Assembly (NCBI GenBank): GCA_915275065.1 | Contig: CAJZGD010000001.1 | Span: forward strand, 1 to 37,588 | Source of the DNA: an uncultured Corynebacterium sp. | GTDB lineage: Bacteria > Actinomycetota > Actinomycetes > Mycobacteriales > Mycobacteriaceae | Length of the DNA: 37,588 bases | Direction of reading: 5' to 3' | Shown: positions 19,573 to 37,458 of the stretch, piece by piece | How positions within the stretch are numbered: position 1 is the stretch's first letter | Layout of the letters: the number at the start of each line of letters is the position of its first letter | The notes under the pieces: generated by a model | The model's input: the letters and a program-made list of their open reading frames with translations, nothing else | Databases searched by the model: none | Told to the model about the DNA's origin: nothing | Program-made: the position numbers and the translations under genes

Positions 19573-20517
19573 ATGATTCTTTCCGCCACCGATAAAGTCG
19601 CCGCTGTTGTTGTCACCCATAACCGGGTCGAACTCTTGAGATCATCTCTGGAAGTGGTAGCGCAACAAAGCCGACCAGTGCACTGGATTATTGTGGTGGA
19701 CAACGGCGCCGACCCGGCCGTCGAAAAGCTCCTTGCTGAGATCGCCGGCGACCGGGGCATATATCTGCCCAGCAAAACCAACCTTGGTGGCGCTGGCGGA
19801 TTCGCATACGGATTCCTGGTTGCGCTCGCGCAGGGCGCCGACGCCGTATGGTGCGCCGACGACGACGGCCGGCCCGAAGGCCCCGACGTGCTCGCCACCC
19901 TCCAAGACTGCGCGGTCCGACACAACCTGGCCGAGGTGTCGCCCGTGGTCTGCAACCTCGACAACCCCGACCGCCTCGCATTCCCGCTCCGCCGCGGGCT
20001 GGAATGGCGCCGCCTCCGCAGCGAACTCACCGACCCGCGCGGCACCGAAGTCGGCGACACCGCCAACAACCTGGGCGACGACCTCCTCCCCGGCATCGCC
20101 TCCCTCTTCAACGGGGCCCTCATCTCCACGCGGGCCATGGAGGTTATTGGCATCCCCGACTATCGACTGTTCATTAGGGGTGACGAGGTGGAATACCACC
20201 GACGATTACACCGATCCGGGCTCCCCTTCGGCACCTGCCTCACCACCGCCTACCTGCACCCGGACGGGTCCGAAGAATTCCGGCCCATCCTCGGCGGGAA
20301 AATGCACACCCAATACCCGGAGAACCCCGGAAAACGATTCTTCACCTACCGAAACCGCGGCTACCTCATGAACCAGCCCGGCATGCGCCGCCTCCTACCG
20401 CAAGAATATGCCCGATTCGGCTGGTTTTTCCTGGTGCAGCAAAAAGACCCCAAAGGTTTCTGGGAATGGCTGAAACTCCACCGGTTGGGCCGCAAAGAAC
20501 GATTCTTCCGGCCATAA
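19573..20517 (+). CDS. glfT1: Galactofuranosyltransferase GlfT1 (GT2)
   Basis: AVVVTHNR, NLGGAGGFAYG, WCADDDGRP, LFIRGDEVEYHRRL and FFTYRNRGY motifs, located in the arabinogalactan locus. Confidence 0.92.
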   Translation: MILSATDKVAAVVVTHNRVELLRSSLEVVAQQSRPVHWIIVVDNGADPAVEKLLAEIAGDRGIYLPSKTNLGGAGGFAYGFLVALAQGADAVWCADDDGRPEGPDVLATLQDCAVRHNLAEVSPVVCNLDNPDRLAFPLRRGLEWRRLRSELTDPRGTEVGDTANNLGDDLLPGIASLFNGALISTRAMEVIGIPDYRLFIRGDEVEYHRRLHRSGLPFGTCLTTAYLHPDGSEEFRPILGGKMHTQYPENPGKRFFTYRNRGYLMNQPGMRRLLPQEYARFGWFFLVQQKDPKGFWEWLKLHRLGRKERFFRP

Positions 20518-20547
20518 AGCTATAAGGTGCAAATGTAAACGCCCTCG

Positions 20548-20612
20548 AACCCCGCACCACAACCCCCGCGCTGTAATGCGCACTGTAATGCGCCGGCATG
20601 GTGCGGGGTTTA
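20548..20612 (+). terminator. Inverted repeat downstream of glfT1
   Basis: AACCCCGCACCA (20548-20559) pairs with TGGTGCGGGGTT (20599-20610). The long loop contains CTGTAATGCGC twice. Confidence 0.45.
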
Positions 20613-20690
20613 TGGTTGATGATCTTGATTACGTTGCTGCGGAAACCCGGGACCCAAGCCACTTGGCCATTGGTTGAGGTAGCAGGTTAG

Positions 20691-22230
20691 ATAAGCATGG
20701 TTTCTGTTCTTAGGCCAAGTCGGCTCCTGCAGGTTTGAACTGCGGCCAGTGGGAAACCAAGCTTAGAACAAATGCTGCTATTTAAATCACCCACGGCTTC
20801 TAGCTGCACAAGTTCTAAGCATGGTCTTTAATTCTGGGGCGTGTTAGTTCTTGGGGGTTTGATGTGGTGATTTTTGAAAACCATGCTTATCAAGTGTGCT
20901 GCTTTGCGATATAGCGGATATCCCCGACCAATTCACCACAACCAGTGAGTCAGCAGACTCGATAAGCATGGTCTTTACTATTCGAGCATGTTGGTCTCAG
21001 GGAATTTGGCGTGGCGCATTTCAAAGACCATGCTTATCATATGTGCTGCACGCAGCACCCTGGGGACAGTAAGTTCGATACGCACGGTTTCTGTTCTTAG
21101 GCCATATCAGCTGAAGTGTCGTTGGCAGAAAACCATGCTTATCAAGTGTGAAGTCCACAGCCCCCTGGAGATAGCAGATTAGATAAGCATGGTTTCCGCC
21201 CTGGGGGTGCGTTAGCCCCTGGGATTTAGAGCGGCAAAGTTTAAAGACCATGCTTATCAGACATGCAGCCCCATTCATTTCGCCCAACAGCGCAAACGCT
21301 GAGCTTGACTTCAAGTTCCCTCCTACTTATCTCCAGTATGTAAGATCTTTGCTGCCCCAAACCCCAGCTCAACATCAGTGCAGCACAATCCCTAAACTGC
21401 AAAACCCTCTCCAGGCACCCCGGAAGTCCGCCCTTTTAAATGAAACCAAGCTTAGGGAAAATGCTACGGCAACCCAGGACAGCGCTGCACATGCTCTAAG
21501 CATGGTCTTTCCCGGCTAGCGTATTGACTCCAGGGGATTTGATGAGCCAGATCTCAAACACCATGCTTATCAGATATGCTGCTCATGATTATTGGCACTG
21601 CCCTAATGCTCTCGGCGGTATAGCAAGTTAGATAAGCATGGTCTTTGATTATGGTTGGATTCTTGTCTAGCGGGTTTGGACTGCTCGGTTTTAAAAACCA
21701 TGCTTATCAAGTACGAAGCCCACAGCCCCTTAGGTTACAGCAAACTAAATAAGCATGGTTTTCACCCCGATGACACGCCAGCCCCTCGGGGTTTAGGATG
21801 GCAGGTTTTGAAAACCATGCTTATCAGACATGAAACTGTATTCATCCCACCAGGTAGCACAACCCCTAAACCGTAAAACCCCCTCAAGGCACCCGGAAAA
21901 ACGATCCCTTTGAACAAAAACCAAGCTTAGGGAAAATACTACAGCAACCCAGATGGGACAGCATATGTTCTAAGCATGGTTTCCATTCCGGGAGCGTACT
22001 GGTTCCTGGGAGCTGAACCGTCACCAATAGAAGTCCAAGCTTAGAACAAGTGCGGCAGTCAGGTGTGCCGGCAGCCGGCCTCTAGCACATGTTCTAAGCA
22101 TGGTCTTTTTCTAGCAGGCACGCCAACCCCAGGGGATTCAGGCCGGAAATCCTCAAACACCATGCTTAGCATGTGTGCTACGCGCGGGCACGGTGGGAGC
22201 GCAGCGGAAGCACGGTCGCTAAGCTTGAAG
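20691..22230. repeat. Array 1 of ~75-bp inverted-repeat units (TAAGCATGGT...ACCATGCTTA)
   Basis: About 24 copies of the motif, mostly in alternating orientation. Nine pairs are offset by 64-65 bp, e.g. 20691/20756, 20815/20880, 20962/21027, 21632/21697 and 22094/22159. Confidence 0.9.
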
Positions 22231-22249
22231 TCCACCCAGTATTCGGTCC

Positions 22250-23512
22250 TCAATCAATGCTGATGGCGCGCACGCGCTGGTTTGCCAGGGCACAGACCAC
22301 CATGATGGCGTGCACTACAACAATGATGAGCAGGATGGTTCGATACGGATCAATCCCTGTTGTGGGCTGATGCCGAGCAAGCGTGTCGGCAACCACACCC
22401 CACAGGGGGACGGCCAAGGCACCCACCGCACCGACAACACTGATGAACACGGACATTGCCTGGCCGACCTTTTCGGATGGAACGGCCTGGACGAAGATTG
22501 TTTGGAATGGTGGGTTGAGCACCCCTTGGCTCGTCGCAAAGCTAAAACCGACAACGACGGTAATCAGGGCGGAATCCGTCACCGAAATGACGGCCAGGAG
22601 GAAACTCACCGCAAGATTACTGAGCGCCAGGAGCTTGAAGAACCTCATGCGCTCCGACAACCACGGGGCGGCGAGGTAGCCTATCGCATAACCAGCGGCA
22701 ACCAGGGCATTCCACACCCCATACCAGGTGGCCGAAACATGCAGCGTGGCGGTGAAAAAATAAATGGCCACCATGCTCAACGCCGACGAACTGACAGCCT
22801 CCAGGATCGCAAAGGGCAGCATCACCCGGTAGCTTTCCGAACCGACCATGGCACGGAGCCCGGCTTTCCACGTGGCCCAAAACCCCTCGGCGGGCCCGGC
22901 GGTTTGTCTGCTCATACTGTGGCGAATGGGGGCAAGAATCAGCGCCGCCACGAGCAACGCCACGGTTTCCAGCGCCATGGTGCCGGCAAACCAACCCCGA
23001 TCAGCACCGATACCGGCCAAAATTGGCCCCGCCATGGACCCCATCAAGGCGAAAAACCGCAACCAGCTGAGCAGCCGCACAAGCTCCTGGCCATCCGCCA
23101 ATCGGTGGGAAACCGAGGCGGCGGCCGGCAAATAGGCTGTGTCGCACATGGCCTCGATGACGGCAAGGGCAATGACCGCTAGAACGGCCGCCAAACCCCC
23201 GGTCGGGCAGAAGACCAGGATCGCAATAATCCCGGCGCTCGCAACCGCCCGCACCAGGCACGCCATGGTCATGGTGGCTATCGGGTCGTGACGGTCCGAC
23301 ACCACGCCCGTGAACAGCCCGGCGAGCAGCTGGGCAACCGCGATAACGGTCAGAAACCCGCTCACCCACGGCACGGAACGTTCCTCGCCAAACACCGCAA
23401 GAACGAACCACAGGCTAATGATCTTCGCCGCCAGCGATGTGGCCAGGTTGGACAGGAAGTCGCTGCAGAGGAGTCGCCACACCAGATGCTTTTTACCACC
23501 AACTATGGTCAT
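22250..23512 (-). CDS. MFS transporter (efflux type)
   Basis: About 12 hydrophobic segments and a GVVSDRHD motif-A variant. Confidence 0.85.
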   Translation of the reverse strand: MTIVGGKKHLVWRLLCSDFLSNLATSLAAKIISLWFVLAVFGEERSVPWVSGFLTVIAVAQLLAGLFTGVVSDRHDPIATMTMACLVRAVASAGIIAILVFCPTGGLAAVLAVIALAVIEAMCDTAYLPAAASVSHRLADGQELVRLLSWLRFFALMGSMAGPILAGIGADRGWFAGTMALETVALLVAALILAPIRHSMSRQTAGPAEGFWATWKAGLRAMVGSESYRVMLPFAILEAVSSSALSMVAIYFFTATLHVSATWYGVWNALVAAGYAIGYLAAPWLSERMRFFKLLALSNLAVSFLLAVISVTDSALITVVVGFSFATSQGVLNPPFQTIFVQAVPSEKVGQAMSVFISVVGAVGALAVPLWGVVADTLARHQPTTGIDPYRTILLIIVVVHAIMVVCALANQRVRAISID

Positions 23513-24276: not shown

Positions 24277-25359
24277 TTACAGGCGGAGCAGTTCCCGGTA
24301 AATCTCAATACGCTCCACTGGAGACGATAACCCCCCAATATCCCGCAAATGTTTCAGCGAGTTTGGGCACAGCGCGCGCACCTCGTTCGCTGTTTTGTTC
24401 CAACCGAGGGCCTGCACAATGCTTTCAATAATCGCATCGGTCACTTCCTCATCGCTCATGCAGCTGAGCCCCAGGACCACCGCCCAAAACGCGTCCTGCT
24501 GCACTGGGTCTTCCTCCACCGGCAGCACCGCGCACATCATGGCGACCTCCGGATCGATGTCGGGGGTGCGGGAAAAATCAATGGCCTGCAACAGCGGCAC
24601 AAAGTCCAAGATCCCGGAGCGCCGAATCAGATTGGCTGGCTCGGGTCGGGTGCGTCCCAGCACGGTTTCGATGGTTTCGGCGCCGGTGAGCCGGGTGTTA
24701 ATCCTTGTGAGGTCGAAGCTGTCCTGGCAGGTGGCACATAACCGCATGCGGTCGATGGCGCCGGAATTGCCGGCGGGGGCAGCGCTCGGGTTGCCGTGGG
24801 CATCAACGACACCCGCACAACCGGAAGCGCCAGGACTGCCCGGCATACCAGGGCCGCCGGGAGTGCCGGAACCACCCGGACCACCAGGACCACCACTCGG
24901 CCCGCCGGCGTCGGCGTCGTAGAAATCGTCGAAGTCGTCGCGGTCGTCGAAGTCGTCAAACAGGAGATCCGCCATGGACCCAAAACCACCTACACATAAT
25001 GCGGTGGGGGTGCCATTATCACGGGCGATAATTTCAATAAGTTGAATACGGATTTGCCATAAACCCACCACACAATGAAATTCATCACCATCGGCTTGTA
25101 AATGCTCCCATAATAAACTGTCGGGATCTAAGGTAGTACCCCCAAAGTTGCAACAATAACGGTCGAATTCTGGGTTATCGAGGTCGAAGCAAATCGTAAT
25201 GATGTTATAGAATTCCGCCACCGTTACGGCGCTATCAACACCGATATGGCGGATAATCTCGTGGTCAGTGGACACAACCTGAGCTTGGATTATCAGCGTT
25301 GACTGCGCATAGGTAGCTGCCGCAGTGCCGCTACGGCTACTACTTACTGGGGTGGACAT
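24277..25359 (-). CDS. Hypothetical protein with an N-terminal pRiA4b ORF-3-like domain and a low-complexity insert
   Basis: IIRHIGVDSAVTVAEFYNIITICF...WQIRIQLIE...ALCVGGFG resembles that family. ATG 25359 is chosen over 25638. Confidence 0.6.
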   Translation of the reverse strand: MSTPVSSSRSGTAAATYAQSTLIIQAQVVSTDHEIIRHIGVDSAVTVAEFYNIITICFDLDNPEFDRYCCNFGGTTLDPDSLLWEHLQADGDEFHCVVGLWQIRIQLIEIIARDNGTPTALCVGGFGSMADLLFDDFDDRDDFDDFYDADAGGPSGGPGGPGGSGTPGGPGMPGSPGASGCAGVVDAHGNPSAAPAGNSGAIDRMRLCATCQDSFDLTRINTRLTGAETIETVLGRTRPEPANLIRRSGILDFVPLLQAIDFSRTPDIDPEVAMMCAVLPVEEDPVQQDAFWAVVLGLSCMSDEEVTDAIIESIVQALGWNKTANEVRALCPNSLKHLRDIGGLSSPVERIEIYRELLRL

Positions 25360-25617
25360 GGTACCCACAGTAGTGGCGAAAAATGAAAATTGCCGAAACA
25401 GTCTGAGAATTACACAAAAGAAACATGTGTTATCAGTCTTGCTTACGGGGTTAAATGGGGGCAATTTTATGGCGGCTTTCCGCCAAGCTTTTCGACGCTT
25501 TTTGCCCACGGTTTCCTGCCACCAGATAGCATATACATCATGTTTGGCCTGTTTAAGAAGAATATTTCCTCCGACCATGCCGCCGCGGATCACACAAATC
25601 TGCCGCTCGACAATTTT

Positions 25618-25764
25618 ATGACAACCCTTATGGCACAAGAGCTACCATTCTTGGATTCCGCATCACGTATTCGGGTGTATGAGATTCTCAACACTTATGA
25701 TGGCCCAACCATCACTAGCCAGGAAGAATTACCCATGGAGATCCGCGAACTCATGGACCTGTAA
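25618..25764 (+). CDS. Small (48 aa) hypothetical protein
   Basis: MTTLMAQELPFLDSASRIRVYEILNTYDGPTITSQEELPMEIRELMDL has protein-like composition. It is the 3' part of ORF 25390-25764. Confidence 0.55.
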   Translation: MTTLMAQELPFLDSASRIRVYEILNTYDGPTITSQEELPMEIRELMDL

Positions 25765-25984
25765 TCCCGCTCATCCGCCCATTTATGAGTGATACGTCAC
25801 GTTCTGCTGTGTGCTACCCCTCGAAACGGGGAGGAAATCCGAAATCAGACAGCGGGCGAGGTGAGGTGATCTCGCTTTCATGCTCCCGCTTACCCGGTAG
25901 TCAAACCCAAAAAATAGGTAGGGTTGAGCGTGAGAAAAATTTGAACTTAACCCAAGAAGCATAGAGAAGGTGGGCTAGACCCGA

Positions 25985-27412
25985 ATGACGCAACGTCCAA
26001 ACCTTTCCACAACCGCACAGAAACTCACCGGTTGGGGCCGCACCGCCCCCACCACCGCCCAGGTGCTTGCCACCCCGGACGTGGAAGAGATTGCTCGTGC
26101 GGTTGCCCTGGTGGCAGAATCCAACGCCGATAAACCCGACTATCTCAAGCGGGGTGTGATCGCCCGGGGCATGGGCCGCTCCTATGGTGACCCGACCCAA
26201 AACGCTGGCGGCCTGGTCATTGACATGCAGCCGGTGAATCACATTCACTCCATCGACCCGGAGACCGCCATTGTCGACGTTGATGGTGGTGTCACTCTTG
26301 ACCAATTGATGAAGGCCGCCCTGCCGTATGGCCTGTGGGTTCCGGTGCTGCCGGGCACCCGCCAGGTGACCATTGGTGGCGCCATTGGCCCCGACATTCA
26401 CGGTAAGAACCACCACTCTGCCGGCTCCTTCGGTGACCATGTGGTGTCGATGGAATTGTTGGTTGCCGACGGCCGGATCCTGCATCTTGAGCCGGAGGGC
26501 ACCCCCGACGACCCCAAGGGCGACCTGTTCTGGGCCACCGTTGGTGGCATGGGGTTGACCGGCATCATTCTGCGGGCCCGCATCAAGATGACCAAGACCG
26601 AGACCGCCTACTTCATTGCCGACGGCGACCTCACCGCCAACCTGGATGAAACCGTGGCCTTCCACTCGGATGGTTCCGAGCACAACTACACCTATTCTTC
26701 CGCCTGGTTCGATGCGATTTCCCCGGAGCCAAAGCTGGGACGGGCCGCTATTTCCCGCGGTTCGCTCGCAACCTTGGCCCAGTTGGAGGAGTTGGCGCCA
26801 AAGCTGGCCAAGGAACCCCTGAAGTTCAATGCTCCCCAGTTGGTGACGGTGCCGGATATTTTCCCCTCCTTCACCATGAATAAGCTCAGCATGATTGCCA
26901 TTGGGGAATTGTGGTGGCTCAAGTCGGGCACCTATAAGAACAAGGTGCAAAACCTCACCCAGTTCTACCAGCCACTCGACCTCATTGGGGAGTGGAACCG
27001 TGGCTACGGTTCCAAGGGCTTCTTGCAGTACCAGTTCGTGGTGCCCACCGACGCGGTGGATCCGTTCAAGGAGATTGTGCGCGATATTCAGCGTTCCGGC
27101 CACTATTCGGCCCTGAACGTGTTCAAGCTGTTTGGCCCGGGTAACCGTGCCCCCTTGTCGTACCCGATGCCGGGCTGGAATGTGTGCGTGGACTTCCCGA
27201 TCAAGAAGGGCCTGGGTGCGTTCTTGGATGATCTGGACCGTCGGGTCATGGAGTTTGGTGGCCGGCTGTATTTGGCTAAGGAGTCCCGTACCTCCGCCGA
27301 GAACTTCCATAAGATGTATCCGGGTATGAAGGATTGGTTGAAGTTGCGGCACGAGATCGACCCCACCGGGGTGTTCGCCTCCGATATGTCCCGTCGACTG
27401 GAACTGAACTAA
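25985..27412 (+). CDS. dprE1: Decaprenylphosphoryl-beta-D-ribose oxidase
   Basis: [43 protein letters not shown] and [10 protein letters not shown] motifs. Confidence 0.96.
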
Positions 27413-27436
27413 CAAGAAAGGCATGTGAAGTAAAAA

Positions 27437-28204
27437 ATGTTGAACGCTGTGGGTCAAGCCCAAAGTATTCTATTGCTCGGCGGCACCTCGGAGATTGGCC
27501 TGGCTATTGTCACGGAGTTTCTGTCGAAGGGCCCGGCCAAGGTGGTGTTGGCTGCCCGGAAGAATTCGCCCCGGCTTGACAGCTCTGTCGCCATGGTGAA
27601 GGCCGCTGGCGCCTCCGAGGTTGAGGTCATTGATTTCGACGCCACCGATTTCGCCAACCACCCGAAGGTCATTGACAAGGCCTTTGCTGGTGGCGACATC
27701 GACATCGCTATCGTGGCTTTCGGCACCCTGGGCGACCAGGAGGCCCTGTGGCACGACCAGAAGCTGGCCGTGGAGTCGGCACAAACCAACTTCACCGGCC
27801 CGGTGTCGGTGGGTGTGCTGTTGGCGGAGAAGTTCCAAACCCAGGGCCACGGCAATATCATTGCGTTGAGTTCGGTGGCTGGCCAGCGGGTTCGCCGGTC
27901 GAATTTTGTGTATGGCGCCGCCAAGGCAGGCATGGATGGTTTCTATGTGAACCTGGGCGAGGCCCTGCGCGATGTCGGCGTGAATGTGCTGGTGGTTCGG
28001 CCGGGTCAGGTGCGCACCAAGATGTCCACCGTTGCCGGTGAGCCCGAGGCCCCGTTGACCGTGAATAAGGAAGATGTGGCCAAGGCGGTTGTTGACGCCG
28101 TGGTGTCGCATAAGGAAGCAATCTTCGTGCACCCGTTGTTCCAGCCGGTGTCGTTGGCGTTTAAGGTGATTCCGCAGAAGATTTTCCGTAAACTGCCGTT
28201 CTAA
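27437..28204 (+). CDS. dprE2: Decaprenylphosphoryl-2-keto-ribose reductase (SDR)
   Basis: LLLGGTSEIGLAI and RRSNFVYGAAKAG motifs. It follows dprE1. Confidence 0.95.
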   Translation: MLNAVGQAQSILLLGGTSEIGLAIVTEFLSKGPAKVVLAARKNSPRLDSSVAMVKAAGASEVEVIDFDATDFANHPKVIDKAFAGGDIDIAIVAFGTLGDQEALWHDQKLAVESAQTNFTGPVSVGVLLAEKFQTQGHGNIIALSSVAGQRVRRSNFVYGAAKAGMDGFYVNLGEALRDVGVNVLVVRPGQVRTKMSTVAGEPEAPLTVNKEDVAKAVVDAVVSHKEAIFVHPLFQPVSLAFKVIPQKIFRKLPF

Positions 28205-30359: not shown

Positions 30360-33300
30360 ATGGATAACGTAGACGAGAAACAGAGCGATACCCCAATCGA
30401 CCCGCAAGTCGCGCCCGAGGCAAGCGACGCTTTGCGACGCCAAGTGTGGCGGCAAAACGCCATGTTACGACGGGTGGCCGCCATCAGCGGTGTGGTGGGA
30501 TTTGTGCTTTTCATGCTCACCCCATTCATGCCAGTGGACCAGGTGCAGTCCTCCCTGACCTGGCCGCAAAACGGGAACCTCAATAGCGTCAACGCACCCC
30601 TGGTGTCGTATGCACCGGAAAACCTTGATATCACGGTGCCGATCTCCGCGCTGAAATCCCTGCGTGAGGACGAAACCACAGTGGTGAGCACCCTGCCGTC
30701 GACAAGCGAAAAAGCGACCGAACGTGGCCTCTTCGTGCGCTCCGACAAGGGCGCGCTGGACGTGGTGCTGCGGGATAACGTGTTCTTCCAAATGGATGCC
30801 GAGGAAGTGGCCGCCCTGCCGCGGGATGCGGTGCTGAAAATCCACTCGGGGCTGAAAGAAACCTGGGTGGAAATCCCCGGCGCCACCGACGCCAACGGTC
30901 AGCCGCTGCGCAAGGCCAACGATAAAAAGGACGATAAAGAAGATCTGCGCCCCCAAATTTCCGGTATTTACACCGAGCTGACTGGGGATGCGGAGCCGCT
31001 CATCCGGGCTGGGCTCAATGTGCAGGTGGAGATCAATTCCCGCTACACCTCCTCCCCCACCGTGCTGAAATATTTCACCATGATCGGCGGGGTGTTGTGC
31101 ACCCTGGTGGCGTTGTGGGCGCTGTTCCGCATTGACCGGTTGGATGGTAAGGGCCGGTATCCGTTCTGGCCGAAGGGTTTTTTCCGGCCGCGCCCCTTGG
31201 ATGGCCTGGTGGCCGGGGTGTTGGTGCTGTGGTATTTCTTCGGGGCGAACACGTCGGACGATGGGTTTATTTTGACCATGGCCCGGGTGTCGTTGGAGTC
31301 GGACTATATGGCCAACTATTACCGGTGGTTTGGGGTTCCCGAATCCCCGTTCGGTGCACCCTATTATGATTTCTTGGCGCTAATGACCCGGGTGTCGACC
31401 GCGTCCACGTGGATGCGGCTGCCGTCGCTGGTGGCTGGCTTGTTGATCTGGCTGATTGTGTCCCGGGAGGTATTGCCGCGCCTGGGTGCGGGGATTACCG
31501 CCCGTAGGGCTGCGCATTGGACGGCGGCGCTCATGTTTTTGGCGTTTTGGCTTCCCTATAATAATGGTTTACGACCGGAGCCGATCATTGCGTTGGGCAC
31601 GTTGACCGCCTGGGTGTCGTTCGAACGTTCCATCGAACAGAAGCGGTTGACGCCGGCGGCTATTGGCACGATCATTGCAGCGTTCACCTTGGCGTGTGGC
31701 CCGACCGGCCTGATGGCGGTGTCGGCGTTGCTGGTGACGCTGTCGAGTCTGATTCGGATCATGAACCGGTGGTTAGGCTATTTCGGGGTGACGGAGGATT
31801 CCACCCGGTGGCAGCGGATCAGCGGGTGGACGGCCATGTTGGCGCCGTTTATGGCGGCCGGCACGTCGGTGTTTATTGCCGTGTTCGGGGATCAAACGTT
31901 GGCGAATGTGCGGGAGTCCACCTATGTGCGTGCGGATAAGGGCCCGTCGTTGCAGTGGTTCCAGGAGTGGGTGCGCTACGAGGTGCTGTTCCAGCAGGAG
32001 GTGGATGGGTCATTTTCCCGCCGGTTTGCGGTGTTGATTGCGTTCATGAGCATTGTGTTTGTGTTCGCATCGATGTTGCGGAACGGTAAGGTGCCTGGGT
32101 CGAGCCGGGGCCCGTCGCTGCGGTTGATGATGATTTTCATCGGCACCTTATTCTTTATGAGTTTCACCCCGACGAAGTGGACCCACCACTTCGGGGTGTG
32201 GGCCGGTATCGCTGCGGCCTTAGGCGGCCTGGGGGCGATTGCTTTGAGCGAGTTCGCTACCCGGTCGCGGCACACCCGTACCCTGGTGTTGGGCGGGTTG
32301 TTGTTTATGTTTGCGTTCGCCCTGTCGGGCACGAACGGCTGGTGGTATGTGTCCAGTTACGGGATTCCGTGGTGGGATAAGTCCATCCAGTTCAAGGCGA
32401 TTGAGGCGTCCACGGTGGTCATGGTGATTTCCGTGATTGTGCTGCTGGTTGGTATTGTGCAATCGTTCCGGGTGGGGTTGGCCACGGAGTTGGATGATGC
32501 GTCGGCAGCCTATAAGAAGGCGGACCGGAAACCCAGCCGGTTTACGTTATTATTCTCCGCCCCGATTGCGGCGTTTTGCCTGGTGGCGATCCTGTTTTCC
32601 ATGCTGTCGTTCGCGAAGGCATTTATCACCCAATATCCGGCGTATTCGGTGGGCTTGGGGAATATGAACAGTGTTGCGGGGAAGACCTGTGGCCTGGCGG
32701 ATTATGTGCTGGTGGAGACAAACACGAACGAGTCGTTCTTAAAGCCGCTCACCAGTAATCTGGGGGAGTCTCTCCAGGTGGATAAGAAAACCCGGGGTTT
32801 TGAGCCGGATCGGATTCCCCAATTGGGGAGCGACCAGCTGCCAGATCTGGTGAGTGCGGGGGATCGCCTGAATGTGGAGGGTGGCCGCAGCACCACGAAG
32901 GGTGTGAATGGGTCGAAGTGGGTGCTGCCGTTTAACCTGGATCCGGCGAAGGTGCCGGTGATGGGCTCGTATACGGTGGGCCGCCAATACTACGCGCAGA
33001 TCACCACGGACTGGTATGACCTGCCGAAGTCCACGCCGGAGGCGCCGCTGATTGTGGTGTCGGCTGCGGGCATTATTGAGGGTGTTGACGCCGATGGTGT
33101 CACCCAGGAGGGCCGGAAGTTGCTGTTGGAGTACGGCAAGAAGAATCCTTCCGGCGGGGTGGATAAGTTGGGTGAGACCCAGATGCTGGATATTGGCCCG
33201 AAGAAGAAGTGGCGTAACCTGCGGCTTCCTATTGATGATCTGCCGAAGGAGGCGGATGCGGTGCGTATCTATGCTGAGGATGATTCGCTTGACCCAGAGC

Positions 33301-33755
33301 AGTGGCTGGTGGTGACGCCACCGCGGGTGCCGAAGCTGGATTCGTTGAATTCGGTGGTTGGTAGCACGGAGCCGGGCTTGTTGGACTGGTCGGTGCCGTT
33401 GCAGTTCACATGCCAGCGGCCGTTTAGCCACTATGCGGGTGTTGCGGAGATTCCCACGTTCCGTATCCTGCCGGACTATAAGGGGAAGCGTTCGGGTGCC
33501 AGCTTCGAGGATTATCATGGCGGTGGCGTGTTGGGCACCGCGGAGTCCGTGAATTATTCCTATGAGCTGCCGGGTTACGCCAAGGATGACTGGTTGCGTG
33601 ACTGGGGTTCCCTGGAACTCTATGCGCTTCGCCCGAATTCGCAGGGCCAGACGCCGGATGTGGCGCGCATCGACCGGACCACGAAGACCCGCTGGGGTTG
33701 GTGGTCGCCAGGGCACCAGAATATTGATACGGATAAGAAGGATTATTTGAATTAG
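30360..33755 (+). CDS. emb: Emb-family arabinosyltransferase
   Basis: 1131 aa with NTSDDGFILTMARV, ANYYRWFGVPESPFG, NNGLRPEP and TPTKWTHHFG motifs. Confidence 0.95.
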   Translation: MDNVDEKQSDTPIDPQVAPEASDALRRQVWRQNAMLRRVAAISGVVGFVLFMLTPFMPVDQVQSSLTWPQNGNLNSVNAPLVSYAPENLDITVPISALKSLREDETTVVSTLPSTSEKATERGLFVRSDKGALDVVLRDNVFFQMDAEEVAALPRDAVLKIHSGLKETWVEIPGATDANGQPLRKANDKKDDKEDLRPQISGIYTELTGDAEPLIRAGLNVQVEINSRYTSSPTVLKYFTMIGGVLCTLVALWALFRIDRLDGKGRYPFWPKGFFRPRPLDGLVAGVLVLWYFFGANTSDDGFILTMARVSLESDYMANYYRWFGVPESPFGAPYYDFLALMTRVSTASTWMRLPSLVAGLLIWLIVSREVLPRLGAGITARRAAHWTAALMFLAFWLPYNNGLRPEPIIALGTLTAWVSFERSIEQKRLTPAAIGTIIAAFTLACGPTGLMAVSALLVTLSSLIRIMNRWLGYFGVTEDSTRWQRISGWTAMLAPFMAAGTSVFIAVFGDQTLANVRESTYVRADKGPSLQWFQEWVRYEVLFQQEVDGSFSRRFAVLIAFMSIVFVFASMLRNGKVPGSSRGPSLRLMMIFIGTLFFMSFTPTKWTHHFGVWAGIAAALGGLGAIALSEFATRSRHTRTLVLGGLLFMFAFALSGTNGWWYVSSYGIPWWDKSIQFKAIEASTVVMVISVIVLLVGIVQSFRVGLATELDDASAAYKKADRKPSRFTLLFSAPIAAFCLVAILFSMLSFAKAFITQYPAYSVGLGNMNSVAGKTCGLADYVLVETNTNESFLKPLTSNLGESLQVDKKTRGFEPDRIPQLGSDQLPDLVSAGDRLNVEGGRSTTKGVNGSKWVLPFNLDPAKVPVMGSYTVGRQYYAQITTDWYDLPKSTPEAPLIVVSAAGIIEGVDADGVTQEGRKLLLEYGKKNPSGGVDKLGETQMLDIGPKKKWRNLRLPIDDLPKEADAVRIYAEDDSLDPEQWLVVTPPRVPKLDSLNSVVGSTEPGLLDWSVPLQFTCQRPFSHYAGVAEIPTFRILPDYKGKRSGASFEDYHGGGVLGTAESVNYSYELPGYAKDDWLRDWGSLELYALRPNSQGQTPDVARIDRTTKTRWGWWSPGHQNIDTDKKDYLN

Positions 33756-33920
33756 CCCTTCGCTTGACGACGCTCACCTCCCGGTGGGCGTCATTCCACC
33801 TCCCCCACCAACCACCCCACGCTCGCCCACATCTGCCCCTGCTGCCCTGCAGCCCCACCCCTGCCAGCCCACATCTGCCCCCTCTGTGCGCCTTCCCCCT
33901 GCTCCGGCGCTGCACATGTT

Positions 33921-34145
33921 CTAAGCTTGGTTTCCCATTTCTATGACCACCAGCTCCTGGGGGTTTGCCGCCTTTGCATAAAACACCATGCTTAGCAAAC
34001 TTGTGACCCTCTTTGAAAGCGGTAACACCACAGACCCACCCAGGGCTTCATACCTTCTAAGCATGGTTTTCAAAATCTACCGCCCCAAGGTGTCACATGC
34101 AGCACACCTGATAAGCATGGTCTTTAAGGACAGCCGACCTAAATC
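33921..34145. repeat. Array 2 (left part) of the same inverted-repeat units
   Basis: Motif copies at 33921, 33985 (offset 64), 34057 and 34111. The array is interrupted by the IS. Confidence 0.85.
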
Positions 34146-34243
34146 TGAAGTGTCGTTGGTTTTTTGGACGGGTGTTTTCCTTTCCCCTGGTAGAAAAAAA
34201 ATTTGTGTGACAGGAAAGGAAACCGGCCCAAGGCTGGGTGGTT

Positions 34244-34730
34244 ATGGGTAAACTCACGCTCATCCAACGACAACAAGCAGTAGAATTATTCGAGCAAGGC
34301 TATGGGTACGTTCTAGTATCTAGGATGCTCGAACTCAACCAATCCCAAGTAGAACTCTTAAGCCGTATGTGGCGTATCCATGGCAAACTATGCCTTATGC
34401 GGAGGAAAAACAAACACTACCCGTTCGAAACGAAAAAAGAAGTCGTAACCCGGTACCTACAAGGCGATAACCCTATCGAGCTAGCAAAACAATACAACAT
34501 CAGCTCGGACAGGCTGATCCGTATATGGGTGAAGAAATGGAAAATTAGTGGGGACAAAAGCCCTACGACCCCGCATGAAAGGATACCCACCAGCCGGGGA
34601 CACTAGCGCGCCTTTGACCGAGGTAGAAAAACTCCAACGCGATAACTACTACCTACAAATGCAGGTTGATGTCCTAAAAAAACTCAAGGCCTTAAGAGAA
34701 ATGCCACCAGGCGAGAACTCACCTATATAG
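34244..34730 (+). pseudogene. IS3 transposase OrfA (HTH), frameshifted near 34556-34559
   Basis: The HTH part (YPFETKKEVV...IRIWVKKW) and the coiled-coil part (EVEKLQRDNYYLQMQVDVLKKLKAL) are in different frames. Removing one A from GACAAAAGCC joins them. Confidence 0.7.
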
Positions 34731-35569
34731 TGGCATCTCTTAAGGCAAACTACCGGCTTGATACGCTCCTTACCCTGGTAGGGCTTGCCAGGTCTACCTA
34801 CTACTACCACCTGAAAAAGATAAGAGAACACTATGATAAACACGCCAGATTGAAACAAGAAATCTTCCGGTTGTTCCACGAGAACCATAAAGTATATGGG
34901 TGCCGCAGGATCAGGCTTGCATTATTAAACCGCGGCTGGGTGGTATCGAAAAACTTGGTGCATACCCTGATGCGGTCTATGGGGCTGCGGTGTGTGATCA
35001 GACGCAGGAAATACCAGTCTTACCGGGGTCGGGTAGGAAAGATCGCCGGGAATGTTCTTAGCAGGTGTTTCACACCCGCTAGGCCGAACAAAGCATGGGT
35101 AACGGATGTGACAATGTTCCAGGTGGCTGGGAAACGAGTGTATTTATCGCCGGTTATGGATTTATATGACCGCAGTATCATCGGGTATTCCACATCACTA
35201 ACTTCTACGGTTGAGTTCGCGGTGACGAGTTTGAAACAAGCGTTTACTCAGGCGGGGTGCCCTCATGGGGTGGTAGTGCATTCGGATCAGGGTTATCACT
35301 ACCAGCATGAGTCCTGGCGTGGGGTGCTTGACATGTTTGGTGGTATCCAGTCGATGTCGCGGAAAGGTAATTGTTGGGATAACGCGGTGATGGAAAACTT
35401 TTTCGGCCATATGAAAGCGGAAATGTTCCATGGGCGGTGTTTCACGAGTACAGATGAGTTAATCACTGCTATTCGTGAATACATCACTTGGTATAACATG
35501 ACAAGGCTGCAAGGAGTACTCGGTGGGCGTACCCCGATCCATGCTAGGTATCAAGCACTCGTGGTATAA
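34730..35569 (+). CDS. IS3 transposase OrfB (DDE integrase core)
   Basis: YGCRRI, WVTDVT, VHSDQG and SRKGNCWDNAVMENFFGHMKAE motifs. It is in the -1 frame and open back to the A7 slippery run at 34676-34682. Confidence 0.92.
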   Translation: MASLKANYRLDTLLTLVGLARSTYYYHLKKIREHYDKHARLKQEIFRLFHENHKVYGCRRIRLALLNRGWVVSKNLVHTLMRSMGLRCVIRRRKYQSYRGRVGKIAGNVLSRCFTPARPNKAWVTDVTMFQVAGKRVYLSPVMDLYDRSIIGYSTSLTSTVEFAVTSLKQAFTQAGCPHGVVVHSDQGYHYQHESWRGVLDMFGGIQSMSRKGNCWDNAVMENFFGHMKAEMFHGRCFTSTDELITAIREYITWYNMTRLQGVLGGRTPIHARYQALVV

Positions 35570-35620
35570 ATAACCCAAACGGATAGGAAAACAACAATCC
35601 AAAAAAACCACGACAGTTCA

Positions 35621-36515
35621 ATCTCCTGGAACCAACGTGCCAGCCGGGAAAAGACCATGCTTAGAACATGTGCGGTAGTCAGGTGTGTGGGTGGGCCAGC
35701 GCTAGCACATGTTCCAAGCTTGGACTTCTATTAGTGACGGTTCATACCTCGGGACAGAAACCATGCTTATCTAATCTGCTGCCCCAGGTGTCGCGTGTAG
35801 CATACCTGATAAGCATGGTCTTTAAACTCTACTATCCTAAATCTCCTGGAATCGATATGCCCCCAGATGAAAACCATGCTTAGAACATGTGCAGCGACGC
35901 CTTGGGTTGTTGGTAGCGTTTTCCCTAAGCTTGGTTTTGCGCAAAAGGGTGGACTTCCAGAGTACCTGGAGGGGCTTTTGCAGCTTAGGGGTTGTGCTGC
36001 CGGGTGGGATGAATATGGCTTCATATCTTCTAAGCATGGTTTCCGCTCTGAGGACACGCTAGTCCCTGGGGGTTAGGGCGGTAGATTTTGAAAACCATGC
36101 TTAGAACATGTGCAGCAATCAGGTACGAGGGCAGGCCGGCACCAGCATATGTTCTAAGCATGGTTTTCCATTTTTGCCAACTCGTATCCCCTGGATTCTC
36201 ATTCCGCCACGCCTAAACACCATGCTTAGAAAGTCCGATACCATATCAAGGGCTTGAGGTGGCACCTGGCACCATAATCATGAGCTTGGGCTTTCTCCGT
36301 CCACAGTTCAGGTTGCAGCTTCACATTCGATAAGCATGGTCTTTCAAATCCGCCACCCTAAATTCCCTGGGATCAATACGCCAATCAGAACAAAACCATG
36401 CTTATCTAATCTGCTGCCCCAATGGTTACGGCAAACCAATCCAGCAGCAAACCTTCTAAGCATGGTGTTTATCCTGGGGATGTGTCGGCTCCTGGGTTCA
36501 AATCAGGCTTAGGGG
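35621..36515. repeat. Array 2 (right part) of the inverted-repeat units
   Basis: Copies at 35654, 35714, 35760, 35809/35873, 35925, 36030/36094, 36154/36219, 36330/36395 and 36456. Confidence 0.9.
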
Positions 36516-36525
36516 GTGCCGGAGG

Positions 36526-37458
36526 TTATTGCGTCGAAAAGCCTTCGGGGGGTTGGACACCAGGCATGACCTGCGTGGCGGGGGGCGCATCAGGCGCGGG
36601 CTCTTCCAGGGAAGTCAACGGCAGGTGGGGGACCGTGATGGGGCCGCTGCCTTCGATTTCAATTTGTTGGACACAATGCCCCCAACACGACAGGAATGTG
36701 CCGTAGAGCACGATGGCAACACCAACCCACCACGCGATCTGGAGGTTTCCGGCGGAAATGATGGTGTTCCAGGCGAAGTGGAGGAGGAAACTCGCCCCCA
36801 AGCCACCGAACATGTATGCCAATCGCTTACGCATGGGAATGTCAGCCAGGTAAATGGCATAGCCGACCCCCAACCCGGAAATCGCAGTCAAACATACGTG
36901 CAGTCCAGGCCCGGCAATCGTGCGATATCCCCACACGGCCAGGGCGCCGTCCACATCCGAATTCGGGTCAATCATCGCCCCGAAGCTTCCATAGACTATG
37001 TTTTCGAAAGCCTCGAACCCCAGGCCCACCATGCCGCCGACCACGAACCCGTGCCACGGCCTGCTGAATCGCTGCGACACAATGAGAATGAGGGCGACGC
37101 CTAAGAGTTTGGAGATTTCTTCCGGGTAGGCCCCACCGAGGGCTGCCTCGAAAAACATCAGGTTGAGCCGCTTTAACACCGTGCTGATGGGTGAGCCAAT
37201 CACCGACACCACCCCGATCGAGGCGCACCCACCCCATAGTAGGCAGGTCAGGTACCATTTCCAGTTCAGCTCGTCTGGCCACATGGGTGATACCCGAAAA
37301 ATTGCGGTGCCAACTATCAGGTAGGCGATGAATCCGGCCAGGTTGATGAGGTTTACCGGCGCGTCCACGAGGAAGACACTCATACCGATGCTGACGAGTG
37401 AAACAATCACCCCGATGATCATGCTGACGATCAGCACGGTTTTTCCGTAACGCAGCAT
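36526..37458 (-). CDS. PrsW-family intramembrane glutamic protease
   Basis: PEEISK, GLGFEAFENIVY, GLHV and LLHFAWN motifs. Confidence 0.88.
   Translation of the reverse strand: MLRYGKTVLIVSMIIGVIVSLVSIGMSVFLVDAPVNLINLAGFIAYLIVGTAIFRVSPMWPDELNWKWYLTCLLWGGCASIGVVSVIGSPISTVLKRLNLMFFEAALGGAYPEEISKLLGVALILIVSQRFSRPWHGFVVGGMVGLGFEAFENIVYGSFGAMIDPNSDVDGALAVWGYRTIAGPGLHVCLTAISGLGVGYAIYLADIPMRKRLAYMFGGLGASFLLHFAWNTIISAGNLQIAWWVGVAIVLYGTFLSCWGHCVQQIEIEGSGPITVPHLPLTSLEEPAPDAPPATQVMPGVQPPEGFSTQ

Follow-up and report, generated by a model that had tools for sequence, protein, structure and literature searches.

A 37,588-base stretch of DNA from an uncultured Corynebacterium sp., called the window below, carries two arrays of a dyad-symmetric repeat unit of about 100 bp. 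With a probability of roughly 0.6, the units are a lineage-specific, non-coding, hairpin-forming extragenic repeat that spreads locally and that resembles repetitive extragenic palindromes (REPs), bacterial interspersed mosaic elements (BIMEs) and REPINs (REP doublets forming hairpins) in architecture and behaviour. The arms and centre of the units are conserved while the interior drifts, and arm variants keep their complementarity through changes on both sides. Units were compared among the assembly of the window (G000; 2.46 Mb in 320 contigs, 57.5% G+C, 88.6% complete), two relatives whose flanking genes are ~94-96% identical to those of the window (G274 and G118, the latter a complete chromosome of 2,866,540 bp), and a sister genome (G209; 53% complete, Emb 88% identical).

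The motif TAAGCATGGT is matched 38 times in the window with at most one mismatch, versus 1.26 expected matches, and none of 100 shuffles of the window reached this number (maximum 6). Twenty of the matches lie in 20692-22168 and 16 in a second region at 33.9-36.5 kb. An earlier reading of the same DNA from its letters alone (the sequence-only reading) had described nine inverted 10-mer pairs at a near-constant offset, confined to 20691-22230. The offsets are correct, the nine pairs are real, and both 10-mers are exact in seven of them; the right arm is ACCAAGCTTA in pair 20691/20756 (one mismatch) and TCCAAGCTTA in pair 21970/22034 (two mismatches, so that it falls outside the count above). 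However, three units of 62-63 nt (21079-21141, 21393-21454 and 21867-21929) had been overlooked, as had the second array at 33908-36499. In the whole G000 genome the spacing peak persists, at 63-64 nt start-to-start in 34 of the 47 forward motifs with a reverse partner within 400 nt, and a minor peak is seen at 53 nt (7/47). The other 88 of the 135 forward motifs with up to one mismatch are unpartnered and are mostly chance matches. The first array is composed as follows.

20678..22182, + strand: array 1, ten units plus two 62-63-nt variants (nhmmer with the unit profile, and direct reading)
20692..20765, + strand: unit core 1, 74 nt, right arm ACCAAGCTTA (motif search, unit extraction)
20816..20889, + strand: unit core 2, 74 nt, both arms exact (unit extraction)
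20963..21036, + strand: unit core 3, 74 nt (unit extraction)
21079..21141, + strand: unit core 4, short class, 63 nt, degenerate left arm TACGCACGGT (direct reading, hidden Markov model (HMM))
21184..21256, + strand: unit core 5, 73 nt (unit extraction)
21393..21454, + strand: variant unit, 62 nt, degenerate left arm TAAAC, right arm ACCAAGCTTA, the two arms without complementarity (family D8)
21497..21569, + strand: unit core 6, 73 nt (unit extraction)
21633..21706, + strand: unit core 7, 74 nt (unit extraction)
21750..21823, + strand: unit core 8, 74 nt (unit extraction)
21867..21929, + strand: variant unit again, 63 nt, 87% identity to the copy at 21393-21454 (family D8)
21971..22043, + strand: unit core 9, 73 nt, right arm TCCAAGCTTA (direct reading, HMM)
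22095..22168, + strand: unit core 10, 74 nt (unit extraction)

Unit anatomy was resolved from 34 full units of G000, which were extracted, oriented and aligned. Each unit consists of GCWGCA, six variable bases, (C/A)TAAGC-ATGGT-YTTY, an interior of ~45 nt, and the mirror image of the outer parts. The ~9 nt that follow (C/A)TAAGC form a stem with the opposite arm. CTCCTGGGG lies at the exact centre of the interior, and the dyad axis carries CCWGG or CCACAGG. The inverted symmetry reaches ~13 nt further outward on each side (GCWGCA-N6) than had been noted from the sequence alone; thus, units are ~100 nt long and linkers ~0-50 nt, in place of the offsets of 50-82 first given for the linkers, and the array period is ~105-150 nt. 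The interior had also been taken for free sequence. It is instead diverged, oriented sequence that is homologous among units, with CCWGG on its dyad axis, and as it is G-rich on one strand, each unit has an orientation.

Core lengths are discrete. Among 116 units (G000, G118 loci and G209) they are 74 (61 units), 73 (22), 63 (21) and 62 nt (7), the remainder being 51 (2), 72 (2) and 77 nt (1). A metagenome scan found at least 116 contig stretches with at least 246 distinct cores of the same subfamilies, in the classes 71-75 (188), 62-63 (46), 51 (2), 81-83 (6) and 89 nt (4), and nothing between those classes among the matches listed. The lengths step by ~11 nt (51, 62-63, 73-74), which may reflect merely distinct interior families, or helical phasing.

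A decayed repeat-protein gene, or else a CRISPR array, would share with the repeats their periodic arrangement only. This explanation is refuted by the unit anatomy and its probability is negligible. The longest open reading frames (ORFs) in the array are 97 and 89 aa, indels distinguish the units, which are found in both orientations, TAA is found on both strands of every unit, and the repeats are inverted pairs within ~100-nt units separated by 0-50 nt. The array at 20.7-22.2 kb is missed by Tandem Repeats Finder because the units are too diverged. In calling this a non-coding inverted-repeat array and not CRISPR, the sequence-only reading was therefore right; no cas-like domains were found among nine window proteins scanned, cas genes not having been searched genome-wide.

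The arms vary together. Five variants coexist (TAAGC-ATGGT, -TTGG, -GGGGTTTC, -TGGGGACC and -TCCCATTCC), each usually opposite its own complement, and at least five are found within one genome. In 28 units from four arm subfamilies the inner helix is 91.7% paired, with both-side changes in 8 of 15 pairs, and the whole structure is 79.1% paired versus 72.5% in shuffles (0/500 as high). Controls with slid partners are 34-45% paired, and the six-base stretch between GCWGCA and TAAGC is 49% paired. As sequence evidence, the both-side stem changes point to intrastrand pairing of the arms. The sequence-only reading had put forward, as candidate explanations, a protein-recognised geometry of about six helical turns or a cruciform. 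With an unpaired centre of ~45 nt, cruciform extrusion from duplex DNA is unlikely. A consensus fold (RNAalifold) retains an 11-bp terminal stem alone, with no conserved structure in the unit interior, and individual units fold as long hairpins (mean z -3.8, 34 units). A solitary unit on another G000 contig (C249 2895-3020) has its palindrome prolonged by the flanks (CCCCGCC ... GGCGGGG); the resulting stem is near-perfect and exceeds 30 bp, and no other unit of the set has so low a folding energy (-65.7 kcal/mol).

Conservation follows the same anatomy. In 41 reciprocal-best orthologous unit pairs (G000 versus G118/G274), the arms have diverged by 2.4-3.3%, ~5-fold less than the interior (15.7%), with the outer GCWGCA at 5.6-7.3% and the N6 stretch at 10-14%; the central CCTGG is hardly changed. 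The selected state would be an intrastrand stem-loop in single-stranded DNA or RNA, and a putative factor may recognise the invariant TAAGC and GCWGC islands sequence-specifically. The conserved arms could let arrays expand, through slippage or unequal recombination between them, and seeding of new sites would be rare and short-range, leading to a regional distribution.

The unit HMM finds 67 non-overlapping units in G000, on 15 of its 320 contigs, and the window holds 20 of these units. Arrays occupy intergenic DNA only, each between long ORFs, and hold 1-11 units; for five of the 17 array clusters in G000 there is no long ORF between the cluster and the contig end. Neighbouring genes include leuA, recR, dnaX, tuf, emb and similar genes. 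Both window arrays are at the ends of convergent genes, and array 1 is flanked as follows.

19573..20517, + strand: glycosyltransferase family 2 gene, left flank of array 1 (domain scan)
22250..23512, - strand: major facilitator superfamily (MFS) transporter gene, right flank of array 1 (domain scan)

Just upstream of array 1, at 20567-20593, there is a 12-nt tandem repeat (CGCACTGTAATG, 2.2 copies) within a GC-rich inverted repeat that looks like a terminator belonging to the left gene. Preferential placement at convergent gene ends was rejected as a rule, since arrays are also found in tandem and divergent intergenic regions. All ten HMM-detected units of array 1 share one interior orientation (++++++++++); other arrays are mixed, for example -+-+-+++, or read ------. 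A relation of unit orientation to replichore was likewise rejected, both G118 replichores being ~65% '-' (32/49 and 11/17, tallied by hand).

These settings bear on the possibility that the units act mainly as RNA, either in 3' untranslated regions or as small RNA genes, with the hairpins as terminators, stabilisers or RNase targets. The stable hairpins, the maintained arm complementarity and the convergent position of both window arrays agree with such a role, which is nevertheless quite unlikely. Conserved structure ends at the terminal stem, arrays are also found in divergent (promoter) regions, unit orientation is mixed, and ten successive hairpins exceed the needs of a terminator. There is no promoter-like or terminator-like excess in 20400-22400 (1 promoter-like site versus 2.3 expected, 2 terminator-like sites versus 2.4), and no Rfam family: at gathering thresholds the sole match is a tRNA in another part of the window, and with E-values up to 1 there is only a chance miRNA match in 20400-22400 (E 0.64). 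A host benefit, for instance from RNA hairpins at 3' ends, is a candidate function only.

The array contigs of G000 map to the same loci as in G118; thus, the arrays are older than the split. In the orthologues of array 1, the end units of G000, G118 and G274 share 90-97% identity, and unit core 2 is 97% identical in G274 and 94% in G118. Comparing unit number and order between relatives, as the sequence-only reading had proposed, reveals whole unit-plus-linker modules present or absent in the middle of array 1, such as the 147-nt module of unit core 3 and its linker, which neither G118 nor G274 has in its orthologous array. For two units in array 2 of G000, the closest match is in array 1 of G274 (84% and 95%), and G118 carries identical 74-mers 429 nt apart. 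Also in G118, a two-unit block of 224 nt is found in two inverted copies that are 98% identical (2,557,076-2,557,299 and 2,800,422-2,800,644; L098 and L100), and its ends coincide with arm motifs. The arrays therefore exchange units, gain and lose whole modules and duplicate in tandem, while their loci remain constant across ~95%-identical genomes. The copies of the 224-nt block are on either side of dnaA, ~127 kb to its left and ~116 kb to its right, and could mediate an origin-symmetric inversion.

In the sister G209 the loci themselves differ. One of its arrays fills a site that in G000 is merely ~27 nt of intergenic DNA, and the linkers of this array repeat the native flank, indicating tandem duplication of a unit plus flank. 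The arrays that this sister species has at other loci indicate that new loci do get seeded.

The second array of the window is interrupted by an insertion sequence (IS).

33908..36499, no single strand: array 2, ten HMM matches, some partial, in mixed orientation, IS-interrupted
34112..34145 (left part) and 35621-35663 (right part), + strand: unit split by the IS (direct reading)
34146..35620, + strand: IS3-family insertion sequence, 1,475 bp (direct reading and domain scan)
30360..33755, + strand: Emb-type arabinosyltransferase gene, left flank of array 2 (domain scan)
36526..37458, - strand: PrsW-family protease gene, right flank of array 2 (domain scan)

The IS3-family element ends in 22-nt imperfect inverted repeats and carries orfB at 34730-35569, with rve, rve_2, rve_3 and HTH_21 domains. 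Its insertion is centre-left in a repeat unit and is accompanied by a 3-bp duplication (ATC at 34143-34145 and 35621-35623), and removal of the element plus one ATC copy restores a 74-nt core. As it is found in one copy in G000 and is missing from the orthologous arrays of G118 and G274, the insertion is recent. The element is not cognate to the repeats, its ends being unrelated to those of the units. The 14-mer TGAAGTGTCGTTGG, with which the IS at 34146 begins, is also found at 21112-21125 in unit core 4. An excision scar was considered and rejected, as G118 and G274 have the 14-mer in diverged form in their orthologous units, so that this is more likely unit sequence resembling the IS end by chance. 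In three genomes, arrays directly adjoin stretches 68-80% identical to nt 227-554 of the IS, the orfA region (G000 contig C249 2555-2887; L108 1422-1742; L096 10697-10761); judging by this similarity they look like old IS3 remnants. Between the two window arrays there are two ORFs of 453 and 520 aa without Pfam match (24277-25638 and 25901-27463, both on the - strand).

A classical MITE (a miniature transposable element with inverted repeats), that is, an IS deletion derivative moved in trans by a DDE transposase that binds both terminal inverted repeats, was among the analogues named from the sequence alone. A length of ~100 bp with ~27-nt inverted ends, the new intergenic loci in G209 relative to G000 and the narrow lineage range would all suit a MITE, yet this origin is unlikely. 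Five solitary units in G000 lack a direct flanking duplication, one of them having inverted flanks (copies within arrays cannot be judged in this respect). Every exact 10-mer in G000 lies within a unit, save two inside genes; thus, no IS there carries the ends and G000 holds no parent IS, G118 having had no exhaustive scan for such an element. The only IS of the window has unrelated ends, and no match to the repeats was found in plasmids, phages or viral contigs. At least five arm variants per genome would be unexpected for one sequence-specific transposase, and the copies form arrays that grow by tandem duplication taking in the flank.

On the complete chromosome of G118 the units are clustered around dnaA (2,684,015-2,684,497). 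The span from -379 to +327 kb of dnaA holds all 62 long-class frame matches (control 5) and 18 of the 19 short-class ones (control 12), the nineteenth being without arm complementarity. With an arm-agnostic frame, 73 of 73 matches (control 10) are found at 40.9-500.9 or 2304.7-2801.0 kb, an arc from -379 to +683 kb that includes dnaA and makes up 37% of the chromosome, and 70 of the 73 fall within 26% of the chromosome. The arm subfamilies, too, are regionally distributed. In G209, a single 190-kb contig carries all 22 TCC-type units, and the one array that was mapped occupies a locus orthologous to G118 2,127 kb, at -557 kb relative to dnaA and beyond the G118 arc. A strict restriction to the origin-proximal quarter, which held for four arm types, was therefore dropped, being weakened by TCC-type units of G118 at 500 kb and by this G209 locus. 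Clustering is general but its region is not fixed, favouring short-range spread over a dedicated origin-domain role.

Sets of sites restricted to a chromosomal domain are known, as in matS/MatP and ram/RacA, and the units could analogously be binding sites of a protein that organises the origin-proximal chromosome. The confinement of the G118 matches to the arc around dnaA, the dyad-symmetric design with three conserved islands and the ~11-nt steps in core length are as expected of such sites, but this role is improbable in view of the G209 clustering in a different region, the regional arm subfamilies, which local copying predicts, the coexisting arm variants, which argue against a single sequence-specific binder, and the copy number per locus, which varies freely between close relatives. 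A broader alternative, slightly less improbable but still unlikely, is that the units are cis-acting sites of an unrecognised DNA transaction, either RAYT-independent (RAYT, REP-associated tyrosine transposase), structure-specific copying of hairpin-ended units over short distances, or architectural sites marking the origin-proximal third. In the architectural version, helical phasing would account for the 11-nt steps, and proteins would make contact at the invariant TAAGC, GCWGC and CCWGG islands.

The repeat family is restricted to a small group of Corynebacterium species. The window falls in Corynebacterium in an Emb protein search, where the nearest named records are just 70-76% identical and have no repeat motif in their flanks. 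Among 321 Corynebacterium species genomes, the exact unit pattern is found in three (G000, G118 and G274), and the outer frame GCWGCA-N6-CTAAGC is enriched in these and G209 only (69 matches on both strands in G000, 83 in G118, 62 in G274 and 12 in G209, with at most 4 in every other genome). A covariance model (R1), run on a draw of 150 relatives that excluded G118, recovers G274 and one marginal match, with nothing convincing in the 148 others. The marginal match (E-value 8.5e-4) is one 130-nt element (L111 1511-1630, G222:C6) of the more distantly related Corynebacterium species G222, which has the same outer frame (GCTGCA-N6-CTAAGC ... TAG-N6-TGCAGC) around a different self-complementary stem. 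From this frame, it is possibly a solitary distant relative of the repeat family. The suggestion that the repeat might be undescribed has held so far, as no matching corynebacterial repeat was found in Rfam or in full-text literature, supplements not being covered; in the part of it consulted, PMC2267715 merely lists C. diphtheriae in a table.

Several observations weigh against a locally spreading hairpin repeat whose arms are under selection. No trans-acting enzyme has been identified: the Y1 transposase/RAYT domain (PF01797) is absent from G000, the complete G118 and G274 (0/3 genomes; a control search matched 6 of 14 reference genomes), and the 29 neighbour proteins scanned are housekeeping proteins or without assignment (ZnuA, GT2, MFS, Emb, AftA, PrsW, LeuA, RecR, DnaX, MMPL, EF-Tu, EF-G, Dyp peroxidase and ABC transporter parts), with no integrase among them. 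The sequence-only reading was thus correct that the window holds no cognate enzyme, none being present among the proteins scanned, while the membership in REPIN/RAYT systems that it had raised is not borne out. As for the arms, 30 of 103 TAAGC-N40-68-GCTTA candidates in G000 match at no more than 4 of 9 inner arm positions, some of which will have arisen by chance, and units near dnaA have hybrid arms from two subfamilies. The both-side changes trace to ~4-5 subfamily switches among related copies, part of the arms is fixed by the patterns used to find the units, and the low arm divergence could be due to gene conversion instead of selection. Finally, a hairpin accounts for the ~11-nt length steps no better than helical phasing on duplex DNA does.

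Most of what is understood about REP-like and REPIN-like repeats comes from proteobacteria, where their spread is explained by a RAYT transposase. The same overall design is seen here in an actinobacterium without RAYT, with co-varying arms, discrete lengths and confinement to one part of the chromosome. If a factor does act on the units, it would represent a new way of maintaining hairpin repeats; if there is no such factor, the family would be a clean case of repeats persisting through recombination alone. In practical terms, the arrays are hypervariable markers between ~95%-identical strains, and they probably break assemblies (G000 being in 320 contigs).

Among known systems, the attC sites of integrons are imperfect inverted repeats of 57-141 bp with conserved short terminal boxes and a variable middle, and act as folded single strands. 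The units share the conserved terminal boxes and varying middle. However, their linkers are 0-50 nt with nothing cassette-sized between units, no integrase is encoded by the flanking genes scanned, and there are many loci instead of one. Correia, ERIC and RUP are MITE-like small repeats, which are alike in being ~100 bp, intergenic and capable of forming RNA hairpins, with terminal inverted repeats. They differ from the units, which have no target duplication or parent IS, are clustered and carry several co-varying end variants.

The REPs and BIMEs of enterobacteria are similar in several respects. The units are extragenic and palindromic, are clustered in mosaic intergenic arrays with short linkers, and form arrays that differ between close relatives. 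BIMEs are bound by IHF, gyrase or DNA polymerase I. REPs can be targeted by IS elements, IS1397 being one case. As REPs are IS targets in the part of PMC1525189 consulted, so is a unit here the target of the IS3-family element at 34146-35620. On the other hand, the units are ~100 nt with a long unpaired centre whereas REP palindromes are ~35 nt, the regular alternation of orientation typical of BIMEs is not seen, RAYT is lacking in G000, G118 and G274, the corynebacterial family is confined to part of the chromosome, and the host is an actinobacterium.

With REPINs, the units have in common a pair of inverted arms, set a fixed distance apart, that folds into a single long hairpin. In REPINs, each arm is itself an imperfect palindrome, short and with a 5' tetranucleotide that is conserved; the consensus of the 27-nt unit arms, judged by reading, has a self-complementarity of at most 3-5 bp and so is not palindromic. 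A single-copy RAYT is required by REPINs, most of which stand alone or in pairs where the present units form arrays of ten. The family therefore fails the test that defines RAYT-dependent repeats, in addition to the MITE tests of target duplication and parent IS. In the portion of PMC2718517 that was available, the R0 and R2 repeats of Pseudomonas fluorescens are described as 89 bp with 24-bp inverted repeats and 110 bp with 43-bp inverted repeats, respectively. Like these (PMC2718517, same portion) and like REPINs, the corynebacterial units consist of two inverted arms around a core of fixed size and form hairpins, and they are strain- or lineage-specific and leave regions of the genome free of repeats. 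They also resemble REPINs, as far as the sources consulted in part describe them, in their vertical inheritance and persistence.

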